NCBI GenBank assembly: GCA_032986305.1
Contig: GCA_032986305.1_3672.1
DNA: 64,000 bases
Origin: a phage
Direction: 5' to 3' (one strand)
The notes under the pieces: model-generated
The model's input: the letters and a program-made list of their open reading frames with translations, nothing else
Database searches by the model: none
What the model was told of the DNA's origin: nothing
Translations under genes and position numbers: made by a program
Shown: one piece after another, positions 1 through 8,330 of the stretch
How positions within the stretch are numbered: position 1 is the stretch's first letter
Layout: every line of letters begins with the position of its first letter

Positions 1-1163
1 CTAAACTCTTCACCAAACTCTTTTACAATCTTCATCAGGTTCGGGTATGCCTTGATCAGCCGAGCAACAATCTTGTCACGCCCTTTACCGATAAGCAAGG
101 CATTTCCTAAGGCATTAGGTTTCATCATCGCCATAAAGACTGAGAATACAAAATCTCGGTTCTCGTCCTTGAAGTTTTCCCAAAGGAAATCGAGGAAGTT
201 TGCCACACAGCTAACAAGATCTTCGTCGGAGATACTTGCATTTTCCATCATATTACGAATAGCGATACAACCTTCAGATCCAAGAATCCACAAGATGTCT
301 GGCTGTTTAGGGCCTACGTATTCTTTGCAACCTCCTGCCATAATCCGACCGATTTCCGGTAAGTTGCGTTTCTTGGTGTGGTAAGTCCAGATCTCTACCG
401 CTGCAGTGTGACCAATAGCACCTTGCAGAAGAACACGGGCCATAGCGTCAGAAATAATACCGCTGTCAAAATCGTGCAAGATATCAGATGCAGCAACCCA
501 AGATCGCGGTGTGGCAAAAGATGGACAATTAATCTCAGCCATAGCCTCATAATTATCGATAGCTGATGGAACTCTTTTCAGATATCCAATTACAGAGGAG
601 TGCACCCCATTAAGGAATGCGTAGTCCTCAATAAACACCTCTGCATTACTTGTAACTTCTACAATGATAAAGCGGTTAGCCAGAGGGGCTTCAAGCGCCG
701 AAAGAACAGCACCATCTGTAGAACGGTTACCTGCAGCTACAAAAACAGAGCCCTTAGGGAATGCATAGGTGCCGCACTTGTGGTCGAGCATAATCTGCAT
801 TGCAACCTTTTGCAGATAGTTATCTGCATGAGTAAGCTCATCCAGAAAGATAATCCCGCTCCAGTCCGGATCTGCAGGCCAAAATTCTGGAATTGCAAAC
901 ACTGTACGTGTAGTTCCATCCGCTTCTACAGGGATAGGTAGCCCAGATAAGTCGGCAGGATCTTTATCCGACAGTCGCACGTCAACCAGGTTGTCATCTC
1001 GCTCACCGAACATATTATCGGCGATCTGCTTCATCACCTGGCTCTTCCCCACACCTATTGGTCCTAAAATCAGGACAGATCGGTTATGACGCTGGGCAAA
1101 CTGAATGATAGCTGGCAACTCACGGACAGTGATTTGACCACTTTCAAATACGTTTCTTGACAT
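1..1163 (-). CDS. MoxR-like AAA+ ATPase (AAA_5-type), partial: start at 1161-1163, 3' end runs off the window
   Basis: Hand translation of the minus strand from ATG 1163-1161 gives MSRNVFESGQITVRELPAIIQFAQRHNRSVLILGPIGVGKS (Walker A GPIGVGKS) and later IIFLDELTHAD (Walker B); no stop before position 1. Start overlaps the upstream stop (TAATG). Not in the ORF track because it has no in-window stop; plus ORFs 52-941 are its antisense shadows. Confidence 0.75.
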   Translation of the reverse strand, partial: MSRNVFESGQITVRELPAIIQFAQRHNRSVLILGPIGVGKSQVMKQIADNMFGERDDNLVDVRLSDKDPADLSGLPIPVEADGTTRTVFAIPEFWPADPDWSGIIFLDELTHADNYLQKVAMQIMLDHKCGTYAFPKGSVFVAAGNRSTDGAVLSALEAPLANRFIIVEVTSNAEVFIEDYAFLNGVHSSVIGYLKRVPSAIDNYEAMAEINCPSFATPRSWVAASDILHDFDSGIISDAMARVLLQGAIGHTAAVEIWTYHTKKRNLPEIGRIMAGGCKEYVGPKQPDILWILGSEGCIAIRNMMENASISDEDLVSCVANFLDFLWENFKDENRDFVFSVFMAMMKPNALGNALLIGKGRDKIVARLIKAYPNLMKIVKEFGEEF

Positions 1164-1468
1164 TAGTAAAAGTCCTCTACTTGTGTGTAAGTGTTTTCAA
1201 AGTTTTCCAAAACAGATGTCACATCGGATCTGTCAATATCGTACACAACTTCCCAGTTGTATGCAACCCTTTCTGCTGTCGCCTCTTCAGGACTTAGCCG
1301 CCTGCTGGGGTGAAAGAATGCTGGAGTGCACCTTCTTAGTTGTCTTCCGGTTTTCCCATAACAATATCTGTGGATAACTTTGTCAAAATTTAACTCTTTT
1401 TCTGCACAAAGTTCGTGTTTCTGGTATAACATGTTTATTACTCTTCTAAGCGGCATCCCTGCCCCCAT
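1163..1468 (-). CDS. hypothetical protein (101 aa)
   Basis: ORF in a compact co-oriented minus-strand array; its stop overlaps the ATPase start. Confidence 0.5.
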   Translation of the reverse strand: MGAGMPLRRVINMLYQKHELCAEKELNFDKVIHRYCYGKTGRQLRRCTPAFFHPSRRLSPEEATAERVAYNWEVVYDIDRSDVTSVLENFENTYTQVEDFY

Positions 1469-1471
1469 CTG

Positions 1472-1852
1472 CTAGAATGCAGTTCGAATCCAGACAAGGT
1501 TCTTATCTGCCCAATCATAGAGGCAAGTCATTGCGCTATTGAATTGCTCACACGGAGGATAATCTTCTTCCATCTGGCGCATAGCAGAGCCTTGCGGGTA
1601 AAGATCCCGTGCTGCAAGCCACGCATCGTAGTCATCCACGGTATCGAAGTAGTATACAACATCCTCCAGCTCAGGATCGAACTTTGAATTATCAGGATCC
1701 AGTTGTTCAGGGAACTTGGAGCGTAACTTGCCAGCCACAATGCTTGCCAACTCGCTAACATGCTTATTGTCCCACTCCACTAGTTTCCCGTCTTCAGTGA
1801 TGCGTCCTAACCACTGATCATGCAGGTCAACTGTTGTCTTCCACTGGGCCAT
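1472..1852 (-). CDS. hypothetical acidic protein (126 aa)
   Basis: ORF, D/E-rich, tightly packed with neighbours. Confidence 0.5.
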   Translation of the reverse strand: MAQWKTTVDLHDQWLGRITEDGKLVEWDNKHVSELASIVAGKLRSKFPEQLDPDNSKFDPELEDVVYYFDTVDDYDAWLAARDLYPQGSAMRQMEEDYPPCEQFNSAMTCLYDWADKNLVWIRTAF

Positions 1853-1854
1853 TA

Positions 1855-2112
1855 TCAGTTCACCTCTTCTTCTCGTTGTAGTTCAAGATACCCGTAGGTC
1901 TGGATATCTTGAAGGGTGTGGAACTCTCCATCTGCCGCTAAGGCACGAACAACTTGACACAAAACCTTATGAGGAACTTCATCCAGACCCAGATTCAGTG
2001 CAGGAAACACCTTATCTAAGTCAACAAAATAAACAAACTGTAGCTCACCAGCTTCAAAAGGTGTATCTTCAATAAACATCTTCTCGGCATTAGTCAAGAT
2101 CTGTACTTTCAT
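1855..2112 (-). CDS. hypothetical protein (85 aa)
   Basis: ORF, start abuts the stop of the upstream gene. Confidence 0.45.
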   Translation of the reverse strand: MKVQILTNAEKMFIEDTPFEAGELQFVYFVDLDKVFPALNLGLDEVPHKVLCQVVRALAADGEFHTLQDIQTYGYLELQREEEVN

Positions 2113-2468
2113 TATTCTACCTCCTCTTCTTTTTCTTCGGCATTAGTTTCAGTGCTACCCCACTCTGGAGTTTCCACCTCGATAGTAAACTCCCGCACTA
2201 CACGGTAATTACCCATGAAGCGCTCCACTTCGTCAAGGCTTACGGAGAGGCCATTGGCAACCAGGTCTGCAGCACCCTCTTCTACCAGGTAGTCCAGATT
2301 GGCTTCCAGAGCTTCAGGCTCAAACCCTGTCAATGCAATCAGATAACCTTCCCCTTCATCAGGGAGGACAATACAGCCCAACTGATTTTCTTTAAAAAGG
2401 CAGTGACCGTCATTATTGATTGGCTGTTCATTGCAGTAAATAGCTGCACGATAAGTAACTTTAGACAT
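2112..2468 (-). CDS. hypothetical highly acidic protein (118 aa)
   Basis: ORF with glutamate-rich C-terminus (EEKEEEVE). Confidence 0.5.
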   Translation of the reverse strand: MSKVTYRAAIYCNEQPINNDGHCLFKENQLGCIVLPDEGEGYLIALTGFEPEALEANLDYLVEEGAADLVANGLSVSLDEVERFMGNYRVVREFTIEVETPEWGSTETNAEEKEEEVE

Positions 2469-2480
2469 TGGTAGGCCTCC

Positions 2481-2759
2481 TTAGGCAACTGTCATTTTAC
2501 ATTCTTGAAATTTTAACACAAGACGGTGATTGTGTCTAGTGTCTAAAAAGATTTTTTCAACCATCAGGCACACGGTATAACCGTCCGTCTTGTTGACAAC
2601 AAAATCCCCAGGGTGAGGGAGAATGTCTCCGGGATTGGGGAAACATAACCCGCTCAAGAAGGCATCATAGGTGGTGGACTTAATGGATTTCCACACACTA
2701 TCTGCCTGAACACTCTCACCAACATAATATACACTACCACATGACTTCATCATAGTCAA
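2481..2759 (-). CDS. hypothetical protein (92 aa)
   Basis: ORF in the same array. Confidence 0.45.
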   Translation of the reverse strand: MTMMKSCGSVYYVGESVQADSVWKSIKSTTYDAFLSGLCFPNPGDILPHPGDFVVNKTDGYTVCLMVEKIFLDTRHNHRLVLKFQECKMTVA

Positions 2760-3655
2760 ATCTCCGCGTAAATTAAACTGGAATCAGTGTACTTCTTTAA
2801 CGGGTAAATATCCTGTCCATAGATGCCGTCATTAAACACCTCATCTACCCAAAGGCTACACTTATATCCCATCATCTCTAAAACACCCATCTCTTCTTCG
2901 GTAAACTTATCACCGCTCTTGCAAGATGTCAACACCTCATTCTGTACTCTTGATACCTCGAAGCGGTTATTGGCAATATCACTATTGGCAATCAAATACT
3001 CACCTAAAGGGTGTGCAGCATTAAAGATGCACAGTGGACGGTTGACGTAATAGTCTCCCGGTGTATAAAAATTGTTGAGATCCTTCACCAGAACATTCTT
3101 ATCAGTCACTTCATTTATAACATCATGCATATCACACATCTTTATATGTTTGAGGATTCCATCCCCCATCACAAAATAAAAACTTGCTGAGACACTCTCG
3201 GCATAGATCTTACTAGATCCGTTGTAGTTGTATTTTACGCGAATGCTTACAGGGGTTTTGCCTGTCGCGTTAGCCATCATCCAAAGGAACGGAAGTTCAA
3301 ACTTCTCCTCTGAGGAAACAAAAGGTGAAGTTGCCAGAGATCGGAAACCACCAGAGAAGTTGAAAGTTACAGAGCCGCTCCGGCGATATGATACCGCATA
3401 TTCTACTTTTATATCGACATAGCCGTTGGAGTAAGTGTGGCCTCCATTATCCAGATATGTCCACTTATCAGATCCGGATACCAGCCTACGCTCAATAACC
3501 TTCATTACTATAGGAATTAGCGGGTTGGTACAAACCGATTTTGAAGTAGCTTTATCATCCAAAGCCTCGTAAATTGCAGAAAGGATATCACCTGCTGAGA
3601 GATTGGTTGTGATATCTTGTTTCCACCGAGTGCTAAAGCTGTTAAGATTTGCCAT
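2756..3655 (-). CDS. hypothetical protein (299 aa)
   Basis: ORF track 2756..3697 trimmed to the Met (MANLNSF) that is preceded by AGGAG. Confidence 0.55.
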   Translation of the reverse strand: MANLNSFSTRWKQDITTNLSAGDILSAIYEALDDKATSKSVCTNPLIPIVMKVIERRLVSGSDKWTYLDNGGHTYSNGYVDIKVEYAVSYRRSGSVTFNFSGGFRSLATSPFVSSEEKFELPFLWMMANATGKTPVSIRVKYNYNGSSKIYAESVSASFYFVMGDGILKHIKMCDMHDVINEVTDKNVLVKDLNNFYTPGDYYVNRPLCIFNAAHPLGEYLIANSDIANNRFEVSRVQNEVLTSCKSGDKFTEEEMGVLEMMGYKCSLWVDEVFNDGIYGQDIYPLKKYTDSSLIYAEI

Positions 3656-3737
3656 GATTAAGTGCTCCTGTGTTCGTTTTCTTTCGAATGGGTGCACTAT
3701 ATCGTGGATTTATAGTAAAGTCAACACGTTTTTGAGG

Positions 3738-3766
3738 TTGACATCTGCCGAGGCACTTGATAAGAT
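3738..3766 (+). promoter_or_regulatory. sigma70-like promoter for the rightward early-like operon
   Basis: TTGACA (3738-3743), 17-nt spacer, TAAGAT (3761-3766); lies in the divergent intergenic region upstream of the 3798 start. Confidence 0.5.
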
Positions 3767-3797
3767 TTCTTCACCTACAGGGCACAAGAGACAACTT

Positions 3798-4787
3798 ATG
3801 AATCTTGAAAAATATTATACACCAGAAGAGTTAGAGCGCCTGCTCAAAAAATACAGACGCAAACAAAATAATGCACGGAAACGAGATATAGAGTTCAACC
3901 TGTCATGGGAAGAATACCTCCTATTTGGTAAAAAACTTTTAGGAGAGGGGGTATGCGACTATACCCTTATACCTTTCGACATGCACACAGATGAAAACGG
4001 GCTGGGGAATCCTTTCTACCCATCTCTGGAGCGGATAGATGATGAAGGTCCTTACGCAATTGATAACTGTTGTGTGGTAGGATTGAGGTGTAACTCTCTG
4101 AAAGACTGCCTGGTAGATAAAAAGACCGCAATCTTGATTAAAGACAAAACTGATCGAAAAATTGTCCAGCAGATGATGCTCCACCTGAGCGAAGAGCGCA
4201 TGGAGAAATTGAAAGGTGATTACACTTTTGAAGATTTCATCTTGCAATATGGGACGGAAGAGGATAAACTGGCACTCTTTGACGAAGAATGGGAGGAAGA
4301 TATGTCACCAATGCAGGATTTTAAAAACTTCATGGCTAACCGTGGAGCCAACAAGCACATTTCTGACATTGTAAACGAGCCTGCAGTAGAGGAGATTAAA
4401 GAAGTGGCGCAACAGGCTTACGAAGAGGAAAAAGAGCCTCAAGGGGACGAAGAAGAGCTCACAGAAGAGGTTCCTGCACTGCCTGACGATGTTGAGATTG
4501 CCAAAGCTTACACTTTCTATTGTCAGACGTTCTACGATGCAGGTATGAAAGTTGATCTGTCATTCAGTCAATTTAAGAGCACGTACATTCGAAAATGTTG
4601 TGCTTTAACTGGTGAGCGTCTCGGGGTCGGACTTAAACCACTATTAGTGACCGACTGGAATAAAGGTTTCACCAAGGGTAACTTTATGGTAGTATCTCCA
4701 ATTATGGAGAAAGCTATGACAGATCTTATGAAGACCACCCGCATGACAATGACCGAGTTGGCAGGTATTTTCAAGCACGTTAAATAA
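3798..4787 (+). CDS. protein with two tandem HNH_3-like modules separated by an acidic linker
   Basis: N-terminal ARKRDIEFNLSWEEY ... CDYTLIP ... PSLERIDDEGPYAIDNCCVV and C-terminal VDLSFSQF ... CALTGERL ... LVTDWNKGFTKGNFMVV repeat the same pattern. Start moved from 3603 to ATG 3798 (MNLEKYY), downstream of the promoter and clear of the leftward gene. Confidence 0.55.
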   Translation: MNLEKYYTPEELERLLKKYRRKQNNARKRDIEFNLSWEEYLLFGKKLLGEGVCDYTLIPFDMHTDENGLGNPFYPSLERIDDEGPYAIDNCCVVGLRCNSLKDCLVDKKTAILIKDKTDRKIVQQMMLHLSEERMEKLKGDYTFEDFILQYGTEEDKLALFDEEWEEDMSPMQDFKNFMANRGANKHISDIVNEPAVEEIKEVAQQAYEEEKEPQGDEEELTEEVPALPDDVEIAKAYTFYCQTFYDAGMKVDLSFSQFKSTYIRKCCALTGERLGVGLKPLLVTDWNKGFTKGNFMVVSPIMEKAMTDLMKTTRMTMTELAGIFKHVK

Positions 4788-4800
4788 TGACAGGGGGCCA

Positions 4801-6282
4801 ATGGCCCCTTCTGGAGTTTTAATGGATAGCAGAAGTTCAGAAATCATTGCCTCACAGAAAGATGATGCCCTGAGAATGTTGCAGGCTGCACGTATGTATC
4901 TCCTTGAAAAGCTGCCGTTTTATGGCACACTATTGTCAGGGTTGCAGTTCGTAGAAAACCACACATGGTGCTCCACCATGGCAACCGACCATAAACGCAT
5001 TTATTACAGTCCCGAGTTCATTATGGGGTTGGCTGATGAACGCAAGGCTATTCTTAAGGCTTCTCTAACTGACGAGCAGTTTGAGATGGCTGAGGTTTTC
5101 TATTCCCCAAAATCTGTGAAAGAGGTGGCCTTTCTTCTGTCGCATGAGGTGGGGCATATTATCTGTGATCACCTGGTCCGTGGTAAAAGCTTTGAGCCGG
5201 AACTGTTCAATATTGCTTGTGATCACGTTATCAACACAGGACTTGTGGTTGACTTTAGCAAACCTCCCTGTGTTTTCTTCCCGAAGGGGAAAAGCACTAC
5301 GTTCGTAAAAGGTAAGCCTTTTGGTTTCTTAGCCAGCTGCTACTGCGACATGAGGTTTCATGGATGGATTGCTGAGAACGTCTATGCAGTTCTTGATAAG
5401 CAAAGAGATCAGAATAACGGTAAAAATAAGAGCGGTAAAGGTGAGAACTCTCAAGGAGATAAGCGACAAACAGATGATCACATGAGTGGGAACGGTGGTA
5501 CCAGTGATGATCTTGGAAAGGCTATGGGGTATGATCAGCCACAACCTGTAATCAGCCAATCTGATAAAGATCAGGCCATGCAGGACTCTGGTGATATGCT
5601 GGAGGCAGCAATGCAAGCGTCCGGAGGCCGTTGCCCTGAGGCTGTGCGTGAGTTTGTCAAGAACAGGGGTAAGCCTGTAATCAACTATATAGACATCATT
5701 AAGCAACGCATGTTGTCTAAAAGAAAGGCCGAACTGACCTACAGAAAACCTGGTCGCCGATCTGGGTCTTTGACCAGCACAATGCGAAAAGTTGGGGCTA
5801 TAAACAAGAACCAGCACGTTATTGTTCCTGGTCGTAACCCGGAAAACACCATAGATATTGTGGTAGCTTTAGACGTTTCTGGCTCGATCTCTCAAAGAAC
5901 TTTAAAGAAAATGTTCAATGAAATCACCGGATTGTGCAATCTGTATAAAGAGTTTAAGGTTACAATGTTCTGTTGGTCAACTGAAGTCGGAGAGGTTAAA
6001 GTATATACTCGCGGCAACATAGACGAAATGATCAACTATGAGGTCCACTCAACATGGGGCACAACAGCTGCTTGCGTGTTCGAGTATCTGGATGCCAACA
6101 TACCGAATGCAAAAGATGTCATCGTCCTGACCGACCTATACTTTGAGCATAACTTTGAACAAAAGGCTGTTGACAACAAGTGGAAAAAGTACGATACTTT
6201 ATGGGTTCTCACTGAAGGGTATAATAAAAATTATATCCCGAGCTTTGGGAAAACTGTGGAATTAATCGAGTACGCTAAGTAA
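4801..6282 (+). CDS. metallopeptidase-like (HExxH) plus von Willebrand factor A domain protein, MoxR-partner type
   Basis: HEVGHIICDH motif in the N-terminal half, low-complexity linker, C-terminal IVVALDVSGSIS (DxSGS MIDAS motif). True start may be 4801 or the Met at about 4822. Confidence 0.75.
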   Translation: MAPSGVLMDSRSSEIIASQKDDALRMLQAARMYLLEKLPFYGTLLSGLQFVENHTWCSTMATDHKRIYYSPEFIMGLADERKAILKASLTDEQFEMAEVFYSPKSVKEVAFLLSHEVGHIICDHLVRGKSFEPELFNIACDHVINTGLVVDFSKPPCVFFPKGKSTTFVKGKPFGFLASCYCDMRFHGWIAENVYAVLDKQRDQNNGKNKSGKGENSQGDKRQTDDHMSGNGGTSDDLGKAMGYDQPQPVISQSDKDQAMQDSGDMLEAAMQASGGRCPEAVREFVKNRGKPVINYIDIIKQRMLSKRKAELTYRKPGRRSGSLTSTMRKVGAINKNQHVIVPGRNPENTIDIVVALDVSGSISQRTLKKMFNEITGLCNLYKEFKVTMFCWSTEVGEVKVYTRGNIDEMINYEVHSTWGTTAACVFEYLDANIPNAKDVIVLTDLYFEHNFEQKAVDNKWKKYDTLWVLTEGYNKNYIPSFGKTVELIEYAK

Positions 6283-6288
6283 GAGAGG

Positions 6289-6555
6289 ATGTTATTTATG
6301 GCAACAGAGGTAGTGATCAAAGCTGAACGCCCAGTTAAAAAAGCTATCAACACATTCCCTGTAGGAACAATTGTGAGCATGATCACAGAGTCAGGTCGTG
6401 TATCTACGCTACTGATTGTGAAATCTGCATGTTCTTCTTGTGTGTGGGCTTACGATCTGGACGAGAAAGAACTAAAAGATTTTGTTGGGGAGCTGAAAGC
6501 AACCGAGCTTGATGCTCGTATCGAAGTATTTGGTGAAACTATGGAGGAAGAGTAA
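6289..6555 (+). CDS. hypothetical protein (88 aa)
   Basis: ORF in a tightly packed plus-strand array. Confidence 0.4.
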   Translation: MLFMATEVVIKAERPVKKAINTFPVGTIVSMITESGRVSTLLIVKSACSSCVWAYDLDEKELKDFVGELKATELDARIEVFGETMEEE

Positions 6556-6818
6556 TGACCACAAAAATCACCATCGCAGAACCGAAAGCTAACACTCAAC
6601 CTATCGAAAAGTTTAAGTGCGGTGAGGTGGTAACATTCACACCAGATAATGAAGATGCTAAGATTTTCGCAATGGTCACAGCTGAGTGGATGTGTGACAA
6701 CACCACACAGGTACTACGTTTCGATACCTACCTCACAGATGAGATCCGAAACGATAAGATCGTGACAGGTGTGGACACTGAAATTATTTTCTACAAGAGC
6801 TTTTTAGAGGGTTTCTGA
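6555..6818 (+). CDS. hypothetical protein (87 aa)
   Basis: ORF, start overlaps upstream stop. Confidence 0.4.
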   Translation: MTTKITIAEPKANTQPIEKFKCGEVVTFTPDNEDAKIFAMVTAEWMCDNTTQVLRFDTYLTDEIRNDKIVTGVDTEIIFYKSFLEGF

Positions 6819-6819
6819 T

Positions 6820-7053
6820 ATGGCAAAAATTCGTAAATTATCCAGCAATCAGGTTGTGAAAGACTTTGAATCTGGAGAGATTCTGTATGTTCGTGATGCA
6901 GATGACGAAGGTGAAGATCTTGTTATGTTGGTGGGGCACGCTGAGGACGGATGCATCCAAGCTGTTTTTCTTGAAACAGCTATGGTGCACTGGATAGAGC
7001 TGGACTTGAAAGCACGAAAACCTAAAGCAGAAATCCTGATTTACGAAGATTAA
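6820..7053 (+). CDS. hypothetical protein (77 aa)
   Basis: ORF in array. Confidence 0.4.
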   Translation: MAKIRKLSSNQVVKDFESGEILYVRDADDEGEDLVMLVGHAEDGCIQAVFLETAMVHWIELDLKARKPKAEILIYED

Positions 7054-7069
7054 CAAAAAGGAGATAGCC

Positions 7070-7519
7070 GTGTTGAGCAAGCGTGAATGCGACAGCATTA
7101 GCCTGAATTCTTATAAGAAACAATGGTTTGGGGTAGAAGTTTGCCGACTGCGGCTAGGCTCCTACCTGAACTTCGTTTATTATGAGAGCGATAGTCGTAT
7201 CGTTTCTTATGAAGTGTTCTACACTAAGAACACCTTCGAACTGCGCCGTAAAGTGGATGGTGGGAGAACTACCACCCAGAATAATTGGGAAACTATCCTA
7301 CCTACAGATGTTATAGGAAGTCCCCTGAATGTATCTGAAGATGAAAATCTTATGGTTCATGCTATGATGGGACTTGACAGCTTAGAGCTGGCGATCTATG
7401 ATATGTCCATCGAAGCAGTTAAGCTGGACTACATCGAAAACACTTTAGAGGAAGGTATCAAGAAGTTTCTCAGTGAGAAATTAAAAGACCACTTTCATAA
7501 GGAGCTATATCTGTTATGA
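7070..7519 (+). CDS. hypothetical protein (149 aa, GTG start)
   Basis: AAGGAG precedes GTG at 7070. Confidence 0.45.
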   Translation: MLSKRECDSISLNSYKKQWFGVEVCRLRLGSYLNFVYYESDSRIVSYEVFYTKNTFELRRKVDGGRTTTQNNWETILPTDVIGSPLNVSEDENLMVHAMMGLDSLELAIYDMSIEAVKLDYIENTLEEGIKKFLSEKLKDHFHKELYLL

Positions 7520-7761
7520 AGACCCGTAAAGAACGTAACAAAATTTTACCTGGAGCTCTCGAACACCTGATGAAGTGCAGATCTATTTGGCACTCTGCCA
7601 AGGAAGGGCAGAAGGTGGTTGTGGTCAGTGACAATACCAACCCGTTTGGAGATTATACCACCATGATGGCCCCATATGTCTGTGATGGTGTTGTAGAAGT
7701 GGTGCCTTACAACGGTTTGCATGAACGGCACTTTGAAAGCACTTTGCTGGTGGAGCTATAG
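7516..7761 (+). CDS. hypothetical protein (81 aa)
   Basis: ORF, 4-nt overlap with upstream gene. Confidence 0.4.
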   Translation: MKTRKERNKILPGALEHLMKCRSIWHSAKEGQKVVVVSDNTNPFGDYTTMMAPYVCDGVVEVVPYNGLHERHFESTLLVEL

Positions 7762-7763
7762 TC

Positions 7764-8330
7764 ATGGCTGTCAATGTGGCTTACAACACAGGAAAGCTTG
7801 ACAGAGACATTGGGTGTCTTGTCCTTTCAGATACAGAAGAGTATTGGGGTTATGGGTTGCTGTCAGACCCACACCCGAGCAACCTTGTATCAACAGTGCT
7901 ATACCGCTACGACCCTGTGCCAACGGTACACGACAAAGACATTCACGACCTTCGGATCAAGTGTCTGGAAGATCTGCTGAACAATGGTTGCAATGATCTG
8001 CGGGTAGCCAAAGAGAAGCTTACAAACATTCACAAAGAGGAAGTGATGAGCACCCTCAGTAAGAGATCAGTGCACAAAAAGATGATGCTGAACTTTGCAA
8101 TGGGTATCTACATGGACGGGTATAAGGGAGGTGATCCGATTCTCAAGCTTCGCTGCCCAACACTGTGGGAAAGGGTGGTTGACAGTAAGGACGGCACTGC
8201 CCTGCTTGAGCTTCACACTGCAGGTTGGATATGGCGGTATGTTGATGGATACCCTCTATGGGCATGTGGGCCTGGGGAATTTGTTGACAGGCCTAGTGCG
8301 GTGGTGGACTTGCTATTGCAGTTTGAATAA
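7764..8330 (+). CDS. hypothetical protein (188 aa)
   Basis: ORF in array. Confidence 0.45.
   Translation: MAVNVAYNTGKLDRDIGCLVLSDTEEYWGYGLLSDPHPSNLVSTVLYRYDPVPTVHDKDIHDLRIKCLEDLLNNGCNDLRVAKEKLTNIHKEEVMSTLSKRSVHKKMMLNFAMGIYMDGYKGGDPILKLRCPTLWERVVDSKDGTALLELHTAGWIWRYVDGYPLWACGPGEFVDRPSAVVDLLLQFE

Follow-up and report, generated by a model that had tools for sequence, protein, structure and literature searches.

The DNA mimics Ocr (T7 gp0.3) and ArdA are small, early and strongly acidic proteins, and large lytic phages carry small accessory orphan genes in their early regions (e.g. the non-essential early genes of T4, some of them anti-defence genes) that are clustered, translationally coupled, dispensable and lineage-restricted. 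MoxR-type AAA+ ATPases are known with a VWA partner (e.g. RavA-ViaA, CbbQ-CbbO and NorQ-NorD). The closest counterparts of the genes described here are those of the phages rV5 and Bas54 (MaxBurger), in both of which they are annotated as hypothetical proteins; their listing as such goes back to the publication of the rV5 genome, a sister phage's genome-wide transposon screen has already scored them as dispensable, and finding them is in itself ordinary. The outcome reported here is instead mainly corrective: the glutamate codons of the acidic tail first noticed are those of a ribosome-binding site, the run is one old family joined by four genus-specific orphans, and the idea of DNA mimicry is at odds with the sensitivity to restriction-modification (RM) systems known for these phages.

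The window, that is the whole stretch of 64,000 nt that was analysed, belongs to Vequintavirus (rV5-like E. coli myophages) and is 95-97% identical to rV5-like phages. A sequence-only reading had pointed to five small ORFs beside an AAA+ ATPase and had proposed them as candidate anti-restriction DNA mimics or inhibitors of host machinery. We found the five ORFs in place, all on the minus strand (1163-1468, 1472-1852, 1855-2112, 2112-2468 and 2481-2759), and the adjoining gene does encode a P-loop AAA-type ATPase, named MoxR in deposited records, which scores below the Pfam thresholds for AAA. The ORFs are orthologues of rV5 gp5-gp9 (rv5_gp005-009) and of Bas54 bas54_0062-0058, which they match in order and length at 79-98% identity (Table 1). 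They show no difference of substance from these counterparts; the window carries a minority allele of the 89-aa gene.

Table 1. The five-gene run and neighbouring features in the window.
Feature	Position	Strand	Remarks
P-loop AAA-type ATPase, depositors' label MoxR (rV5 gp4 / bas54_0063)	1..1163	-	387 of 394 codons lie in the window
89-aa protein (rV5 gp5 / bas54_0062)	1163..1432	-	pI 5.6; genus-restricted; two allele groups
126-aa acidic protein (rV5 gp6 / bas54_0061)	1472..1852	-	pI 4.31, net -13
85-aa acidic protein (rV5 gp7 / bas54_0060)	1855..2112	-	pI 4.31, net -10; genus-restricted
118-aa protein (rV5 gp8 / bas54_0059)	2112..2468	-	pI 4.05, net -20; genus-restricted orphan
EEKEEEVE tail codons of the 118-aa protein	2115..2138	-	contain GAGGAGG (2126-2120)
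90-aa near-neutral protein (rV5 gp9 / bas54_0058)	2481..2753	-	pI 6.8; genus-restricted
299-aa gene, first of the leftward operon (rV5 gp10)	2756..3655	-	annotated 'putative alpha 1-3 fucosyltransferase'
Sigma-70-like promoter TTGACT-17-TATAGT	3696..3724	-	faces the leftward operon; 10 of 12 matches
DUF2201_N metallopeptidase-like + VWA-like protein	4801..6282	+	divergent operon; context, outside the five-gene run

The five ORFs are genuine, conserved genes

Each gene has homologues in 116-118 phage records, a figure that rises to 180 for the 126-aa protein, and each product gave a full-length profile match to a PHROG (13164, 6318, 13124, 12908 and 12847; E = 7e-58 to 1.7e-79), all of them rV5-like hypothetical proteins without known function. 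Purifying selection acts on all five genes (dN/dS of 0.05-0.22, with dS up to 1.4, against one diverged relative). The absence of any family assignment or known domain is what one would expect of non-functional or mis-called reading frames, but it is extremely improbable that these ORFs are such: the substitution pattern refutes it, the frames are kept in ~117 genomes, each of the five has its own Shine-Dalgarno site, and the 126-aa product yields a confident structural model. We therefore regard all five as genuine conserved genes and not as chance ORFs. The name 'ATPase' attached to phrog_13164 is unsupported, because the 89-aa protein has neither a P-loop nor an AAA/ATPase family match in Pfam or NCBIfam.

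Initiation further upstream, at the ATG at 1468, would make the gp5 orthologue 101 aa long (pI 6.3); its start is most likely M13 (position 1432, 89 aa), because the phrog_13164 match covers residues 13-101 of the longer form and the gp5-type gene is annotated as 270 nt in BP9, Bas54 and rV5. For the gp9 orthologue, the most likely start is the ATG at 2753, which is also the one annotated in relatives and gives 90 aa, and the TTG at 2759 called by the ORF finder is probably not its start. Overlapping start and stop codons had been described along the run; they are confined to two junctions, both TAATG (118-aa to 85-aa gene, and 89-aa gene to ATPase), whereas the remaining junctions are spaced by 2, 2, 12 and 3 nt (the last by ~39 nt with the 89-aa start). 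Translation looks coupled at a minimum of two junctions.

The run follows the 299-aa gene, for which a Pfam search returned no match, and the sigma-70-like promoter upstream of it is identical in a diverged Vequintavirus locus (L009). Bidirectional promoters have been described between genes 10 and 11 of rV5 (PMC3606486). The neighbours in the leftward operon are of early type (Srd-like, rIIA/rIIB), and the operon also includes early genes with housekeeping roles, among them rIIA/B and a helicase. The label 'early-like' given to this operon is in keeping with these promoters and the early-type neighbours, from which we infer the timing; our literature search returned no Vequintavirus transcriptome or transcript data for early expression. 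The leftward operon is probably early and sigma-70-driven.

Acidity of the run

Several of the products had been called strongly acidic, which is true of three of the five, the 126-, 85- and 118-aa proteins (pI 4.05-4.31; net charge of -0.10 to -0.17 per residue), but not of the 90-aa protein (pI 6.8) or the 89/101-aa protein (pI 5.6/6.3). The acidity of the run is not exceptional for this phage: the median pI of the window proteome is 5.2, and because 22% of the small ORFs have a pI <4.5, high negative charge does not discriminate DNA mimics. Per residue, the 118-aa protein is the most acidic small ORF of the window.

The EEKEEEVE tail of that protein had been offered as the example of strong acidity. 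The GAGGAGG within its codons is the Shine-Dalgarno site of the 85-aa gene, 7 nt before the ATG, and in two relatives the tail is frameshifted to a basic KKKKRR (P0006) or missing (P0007); the last 14 residues carry -6 of the net -20. The Shine-Dalgarno site of the 126-aa gene (GAGGTG, 1866-1861) likewise lies within the REEEVN codons at the C-terminus of the 85-aa protein. In part the five proteins share their negative charge with the proteome at large; at the C-termini it is a by-product of GAG-rich ribosome-binding sites that serve the downstream genes. The negative charge of the run is no evidence of DNA mimicry.

Comparison with anti-restriction DNA mimics

If the 118-, 126- or 85-aa protein, or more than one of them, were an Ocr/ArdA-type mimic, it would sit in the DNA-binding groove of restriction or defence proteins and shield unmodified DNA. 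Ocr and ArdA resemble the 118-aa protein in size and charge density, and known DNA mimics span the pI and charge-per-residue range of the three acidic proteins, whose genes are probably expressed early; yet one third of the net charge of the 118-aa protein falls in its tail, which is not conserved and whose codons form the ribosome-binding site of the following gene, and more than a fifth of the phage's small ORFs are equally acidic. Sequence and profile searches placed none of the five proteins in Ocr, ArdA, KlcA/ArdB or other anti-restriction families: at E <= 1, Pfam gave no family for the 118-, 126-, 85- and 101-aa proteins, while its sole match for the 90-aa protein was a spurious one to a lipase, NCBIfam gave no match for any of the five, and none matched a PDB sequence below E = 0.05.

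Structure prediction, which had been suggested as a check against known DNA mimics, gave one confident model. The 126-aa model is mostly helical (pLDDT 94.6) and found no match in the PDB with Foldseek (best E = 2, TM <= 0.40); having no PDB match at E < 1, it therefore resembles no solved mimic, and against BFVD it matched only unnamed members of its own family. The AlphaFold2 model of the 118-aa protein, built with 7 close homologues, reached a pLDDT of 58, a confidence too low to exclude any fold, at which Foldseek is uninformative. Indirect evidence on protection from restriction is negative: these genes are present in the Vequintavirinae of the BASEL collection, and that group is reported to be 'exceptionally susceptible' to RM systems (PMC8594841). 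Neither K-12 nor CFE311 requires the orthologues (see below). Our literature search returned no anti-defence assignment for any of the five genes. Taken with the acidity that the 126-aa family retains at 27-38% identity, which speaks for mimicry, we judge an Ocr/ArdA-type function to be very unlikely.

One widespread family and four genus-restricted genes

The 126-aa protein belongs to an acidic, Trp-rich family found across the Vequintavirinae and in two other viral contigs, with 28-38% identity outside the genus. Acidity runs through the whole family (pI 4.09-5.02 across 45 members); seven aromatic residues are conserved, and there is a C-terminal motif, F-N-x2-M-x3-Y-D-W-x-D-x-N-x-V-W. The conserved acidity, the aromatic residues, the motif and the PDB-unmatched predicted fold are what the idea of charge mimicry for this family draws on: the family would be a new class of phage inhibitor directed against a conserved host nucleic-acid-binding or defence protein, and the genus-specific 118-aa protein, which has a divergent allele, would, separately, block or trigger a defence system with which it is engaged in an arms race. 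We consider this proposal unlikely; were the family to prove to have a host target, an uncharacterised fold would, speculatively, join the list of phage effectors.

In contrast to the gp6 family, homologues of gp5, gp7, gp8 and gp9 were found in Vequintavirus only. For gp8, an exhaustive HMMER profile search of 1.84 billion representative proteins and a word-indexed search of 5.8 billion proteins both returned its own cluster only. What occupies the gp7-gp9 slot in other genera is unrelated: mostly basic proteins, together with DUF7202, a zinc-binding protein and one that is HD-like. We considered the 90-, 118- and 85-aa proteins as diverged forms of the slot proteins of Seunavirus, Klebsiella phages and Av-05 and rejected this, as there is no similarity. 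No paralogues of the five proteins were found elsewhere in the window. On this distribution of homologues, an old family and four orphan genes specific to the genus make up the run, which is not one system.

Dispensability and the MoxR/VWA module

Because the Bas54 copies are direct orthologues, the published essentiality data apply to the window genes. In the Bas54 transposon screen, all five orthologues were non-essential on K-12, with 89-100% of TA sites hit. On CFE311, a uropathogenic E. coli isolate, bas54_0058-0062 were not depleted (log2FC of +0.24 to +0.79, q >= 0.89), whereas the ATPase and the VWA protein bas54_0055 were (log2FC of -7.23 and -2.20, respectively), and the MoxR ATPase is reported as an anti-defence gene against the defence system DS-28 (10.1101/2025.11.20.689424). 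The five Bas54 orthologues are thus not needed where the MoxR ATPase counters DS-28. These fitness data cover K-12 and one clinical isolate, CFE311; CFE303 was left out, since its sheet carries the CFE311 command line.

The locus resembles MoxR-VWA systems in pairing a MoxR-labelled ATPase with a DUF2201_N/VWA-like protein, both of which are depleted on CFE311. The DUF2201_N + VWA-like protein, whose orthologue is bas54_0055, is the expected partner of a MoxR-type ATPase. The 126- and 89-aa proteins might then be adaptors, substrates or regulators of this ATPase/VWA-metallopeptidase module in counter-defence: the stop codon of the 89-aa gene and the start codon of the ATPase overlap, and the order 126-aa homologue, small 72-89-aa protein (in most genera), ATPase recurs in every Vequintavirinae-type locus examined (n=24). 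Synteny within a subfamily can, however, be inherited without functional linkage. The locus differs from MoxR-VWA systems in that the ATPase is required where the small acidic proteins are not, and in the score of the ATPase itself, which falls below the Pfam AAA thresholds. On CFE311, where the ATPase is indispensable, insertions in bas54_0061 and bas54_0062 were not depleted, and the more distant viral contigs L021 and L024 keep a member of the 126-aa family with no ATPase within 4 kb. We found a cofactor role for the small proteins improbable in view of the published transposon data and of the family members that occur without the ATPase. In loci of the Klebsiella-phage type, the small gene between the 126-aa homologue and the ATPase is missing.

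A proposed mixed set of accessory genes

We reasoned that the five genes encode mixed, unrelated accessory proteins of a probably early operon that bind host factors and are conditionally useful, a reading to which we assign a probability of roughly 50%. The run lies behind gp10 in the leftward, probably early, sigma-70-driven operon that continues into the MoxR-like ATPase and rIIA/rIIB. Within it, gp6 represents an old acidic Trp-rich family kept throughout the Vequintavirinae and also in phages without the ATPase; gp5, immediately upstream of the ATPase, is a fast-evolving gene detectable within the genus only; and gp7, gp8 and gp9 are genus-confined orphans filling a slot that sister genera fill with unrelated, mostly basic proteins. 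The proteins would work singly and early in infection, each binding and modulating a host protein (a defence component or a housekeeping factor). Each would be useful on particular hosts only, and this would account for the dispensability of all five on laboratory E. coli. Early timing, host-protein binding and host-specific benefit are what we infer here, and conditional usefulness is an assumption, since the readable published data cover K-12 and one clinical isolate. The generic half of the sequence-only reading, small accessory genes that may act on the host, is compatible with the evidence.

The run resembles the small accessory orphan genes of large lytic phages, such as the non-essential early genes of T4, in being clustered, translationally coupled, dispensable, lineage-restricted and close to Srd-like and rIIA/rIIB genes; it differs in that the sole anti-defence phenotype of the locus belongs to the ATPase and not to the small genes. 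Strong purifying selection and near-universal presence in the genus could equally fit a role inside the phage, in which the five proteins would tune transcription, replication or assembly with small effects and without acting on host proteins. The housekeeping early genes in the same operon and the conservation of the 126-aa family over a large evolutionary distance also accord with such a role, to which we give perhaps half the credence of host-acting accessory functions. Against it, transposon saturation was high with no fitness class below 'non-essential', and sister genera that share the core machinery have unrelated genes in place of gp7-gp9.

Host-acting accessory functions, for their part, fit the laboratory dispensability, the replacement of the gp7-gp9 slot, and the islands of allelic divergence that we found in gp8 (118 aa) and gp5 (89 aa), which suggest outward-facing selection and so argue against a phage-internal role. 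A rare divergent allele of gp8 has 72% identity, and the gp5 of the window is itself a minority allele, with 79% identity to the Bas54 copy and at least 95% to 35/117 records.

A conserved locus of rV5-like phages encodes five genuine small proteins

The first 8 kb of the window matched 122 phage records at 90–97% identity, almost all of them Escherichia phages of the genus Vequintavirus (rV5-like myophages), and annotated relatives have the same gene order: rIIB, rIIA, a cell-wall hydrolase, a hypothetical gene, a MoxR-labelled ATPase, five small hypothetical genes and a 299-aa gene on one strand, and a Srd-like gene and a DUF2201_N/VWA-like 'metallopeptidase' gene on the divergent strand. 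Because relatives keep this order, the five ORFs are orthologues of rV5 gp5–gp9; they correspond to bas54_0062–0058 of the BASEL phage Bas54 (MaxBurger; 79–98% amino-acid identity), and the BASEL phages of this group carry all five. We also found 16 GenBank 'Campylobacter phage' records (MG0656xx, host stated as Campylobacter jejuni) that are 95–97% identical to window 1–8000; this host label looks doubtful.

Features of the locus and related genes (window positions unless a contig is named; the five small ORFs as in the ORF list)
Feature	Position	Strand	Remark
MoxR-labelled ATPase	1–1163	−	across divergent promoters from the DUF2201_N/VWA-like protein
89/101-aa ORF	1163–1468	−	
126-aa ORF	1472–1852	−	
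GAGGTG of 126-aa gene	1861–1866	−	
85-aa ORF	1855–2112	−	
118-aa ORF	2112–2468	−	
EEKEEEVE codons	2115–2138	−	
90-aa ORF	2481–2759	−	
Only intergenic region	3656–3803		
Leftward promoter			TTGACT-17-TATAGT; sigma-70-like, 10/12; faces leftward operon
Rightward promoter			TTGACA-17-TAAGAT; sigma-70-like, 10/12; faces rightward
Srd-like gene	3804–4787	+	
DUF2201_N/VWA-like 'metallopeptidase'	4801–6282	+	far side of divergent promoters
Tandem small ORFs	6289–7053	+	88, 87 and 77 aa
118-aa gene, L009/L010	5001–5339		
126-aa-family gene, L021	4001–4309		102 aa
126-aa-family gene, L024	4001–4354		117 aa

The ORFs are genuine: each has a full-length match to a single small PHROG (5/5; none of known function), dN/dS against a diverged Vequintavirus contig (L012) is 0.05–0.22 at dS 0.33–1.43 for all five, and GGAG, AAGGAGG, GAGGAGG, GAGGTG and GAGGA motifs precede the start codons. 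Relatives' annotations and PHROG profiles shift the start of the 90-aa ORF to 2753 (ATG), and the ORF next to the ATPase gene probably begins at 1432, giving 89 aa. The overlapping start and stop codons proposed in the sequence-only reading exist at two TAATG junctions (118-aa to 85-aa, and 89-aa to ATPase), but the remaining junctions have spacers of 2–12 nt; that before the 89-aa gene is 3 nt, or ~39 nt if its M13 start is used.

The only intergenic region contains two back-to-back promoters, both identical in the diverged Vequintavirus contig L009; for rV5, promoters firing in both directions have been reported between genes 10 and 11 (PMC3606486). Given that promoter-like sites overall are as numerous as expected from shuffling, and that we found no transcriptome for the genus Vequintavirus in the literature, early expression of the small-gene operon is something we reasonably infer rather than report as a result.

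Acidity and the glutamate-rich tails

The same reading had called several of the proteins strongly acidic, which holds for the 126-aa (pI 4.31, net −13), 85-aa (pI 4.31, net −10) and 118-aa (pI 4.05, net −20) proteins but not for the 90-aa (pI 6.8) and 89/101-aa (pI 5.6/6.3) proteins. Per residue, no small ORF of the window is more acidic than the 118-aa one. In a crude whole-window gene call, however, the median pI is 5.2, 40% of proteins lie below pI 5 and 22% of small ORFs below pI 4.5; the proteome is thus acidic in general, and three acidic small proteins in a row are unremarkable.

The eye-catching feature of the run, the EEKEEEVE tail of the 118-aa protein (encoded by GAAGAAAAAGAAGAGGAGGTAGAA), has a trivial explanation. 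Its codons contain a GAGGAGG Shine-Dalgarno site 7 nt ahead of the ATG of the 85-aa gene, and the GAGGTG Shine-Dalgarno site of the 126-aa gene is similarly embedded in the codons for REEEVN, at the end of the 85-aa protein; these acidic C-termini are downstream genes' ribosome-binding sites translated as Glu codons. Nor is the tail, which contributes −6 of the net −20, conserved at the protein level: a frameshift gives one homologue (P0006) a Lys/Arg tail instead (...KKKKRR), and a second homologue stops short of it. The proposal that these are DNA-mimic or anti-restriction proteins has charge as its sole support and several independent lines of evidence against it, and we regard it as very improbable. 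Maffei et al. describe the BASEL Vequintavirinae, the group that carries these genes, as 'exceptionally susceptible' to restriction-modification systems (PMC8594841).

One ancient family and a genus-specific cassette

Among 5.8 billion proteins, the 118-aa protein forms only 8 clusters, with identities of 72% or more. The 117 phage records in which it occurs are all Vequintavirus, and when 1.84 billion representative proteins were searched exhaustively with its profile, no relatives appeared beyond its own cluster. The 85-, 90- and 89-aa proteins are also restricted to Vequintavirus (116–118 records). The 126-aa protein has tblastn hits in 180 records, among them phages of Klebsiella, Salmonella, Cronobacter, Proteus and Enterobacter (28–38% identity), and a profile search added 45 further clusters. 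This family keeps its acidity (pI 4.09–5.02), together with aromatic residues that are invariant or nearly so and a motif at the C-terminus, F-N..M...Y-D-W.D.N.V-W.

Loci of Seunavirus, Avunavirus and Klebsiella phages retain the frame: the VWA protein, Srd-like gene and divergent promoters, then a ~300–340-aa gene, the 126-aa homologue, in most loci a 72–80-aa gene, and the ATPase. The place of the 90-, 118- and 85-aa genes is taken by other proteins, mostly of pI 7–10 (including HD-like 165–170-aa, zinc-binding, DUF7202 and basic 166-aa proteins), none similar to the window's. Because relatives keep the frame but fill the slot with unrelated proteins, the run is composite, made up of one ancient family, a positional counterpart and, in a slot that varies, a cassette specific to the genus. 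Alleles vary as well within the genus: in contigs L009/L010 the 118-aa gene is divergent (72% amino-acid identity, saturated dS) beside upstream neighbours that are 97–100% identical, a pattern resembling a recombination island. Across 117 records, the 89-aa gene falls into two allele groups (~79% vs. at least 95% identity).

AlphaFold2, given a 45-sequence alignment, modelled the 126-aa family as five helices with a short strand at either end (pLDDT 94.6, pTM 0.86). Foldseek found no PDB fold match to this model (best E = 2, TM ≤ 0.40) and, in BFVD, solely members of the family or its distant relatives, all of them unnamed viral proteins. The 118-aa model, built from close homologues only, reached pLDDT 58, and a structure search with it was uninformative; profile or sequence searches matched none of the five proteins to PDB chains.

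Transposon data separate the small genes from the ATPase

Gene essentiality has been mapped in Bas54 by HIDEN-SEQ (10.1101/2025.11.20.689424): bas54_0058–0062 are all 'non-essential', with 89–100% of TA sites hit. When K-12 is compared with the uropathogenic isolate CFE311, bas54_0063, the MoxR ATPase, is lost (log2FC −7.23), and the preprint validates this gene as anti-defence, acting against the predicted system DS-28. The five small genes are undepleted (+0.24 to +0.79, q ≥ 0.89); polar effects of insertions are, the authors argue, not widespread. That the small proteins are cofactors of the ATPase, as synteny and TAATG coupling might suggest, is contradicted by these data and by two viral contigs (L021 and L024) that keep a shorter 126-aa-family member but lack a MoxR-like ATPase within 4 kb of it; we consider such a role improbable. 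A 638-aa helicase-like ORF precedes the gene in L024, and in L021 it is flanked by an HD-like gene on one side and a possible macro-domain-like gene on the other (these last two named by eye).

We favour, at a probability of about 0.5, a series of accessory proteins that are independent of one another, dispensable and probably early, and that bind host proteins and are useful on particular hosts only. Each would act on its own, most plausibly by binding a host protein, and would pay off only on those hosts; the set is mixed, some proteins being ancient and some lineage-specific. A phage-internal role is possible, if clearly the weaker bet. The picture is ordinary for a large lytic phage, and the run is real, yet already catalogued and partly tested by others.

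The VWA orthologue bas54_0055 is also depleted in CFE311 in the HIDEN-SEQ table (−2.20, q 0.009), while the preprint text names the ATPase and bas54_0140 only (10.1101/2025.11.20.689424); since bas54_0063 and bas54_0055 are both depleted, the data fit a MoxR–VWA pair jointly countering DS-28. In Extended Data Table 8 of that preprint, sheet Data S6 is labelled K-12 vs. CFE303, yet both its command line and its values are those of the CFE311 comparison, making it a duplicate of sheet S7.

Annotation of neighbouring genes

The MoxR label derives from the depositors' annotation and the VWA neighbour: Pfam AAA scores of the ATPase ORF (window 3–1163) are sub-threshold (best AAA_14, 20.3 bits vs. 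a cut-off of 27), and its PDB matches are weak and confined to the Walker A region. The 89-aa protein (1163–1432, minus strand; RefSeq rv5_gp005, phrog_13164) carries the name 'ATPase' although it has no P-loop, the Srd-like and DUF2201/VWA proteins are each 'HNH endonuclease' in RefSeq and PHROGs, and the name 'fucosyltransferase' of the 299-aa gp10 lacks Pfam support; these names are annotation spill-overs. Directly after the VWA gene lie three tandem small ORFs with no Pfam match, the 88- and 87-aa products having a pI of ~4.5–4.7.
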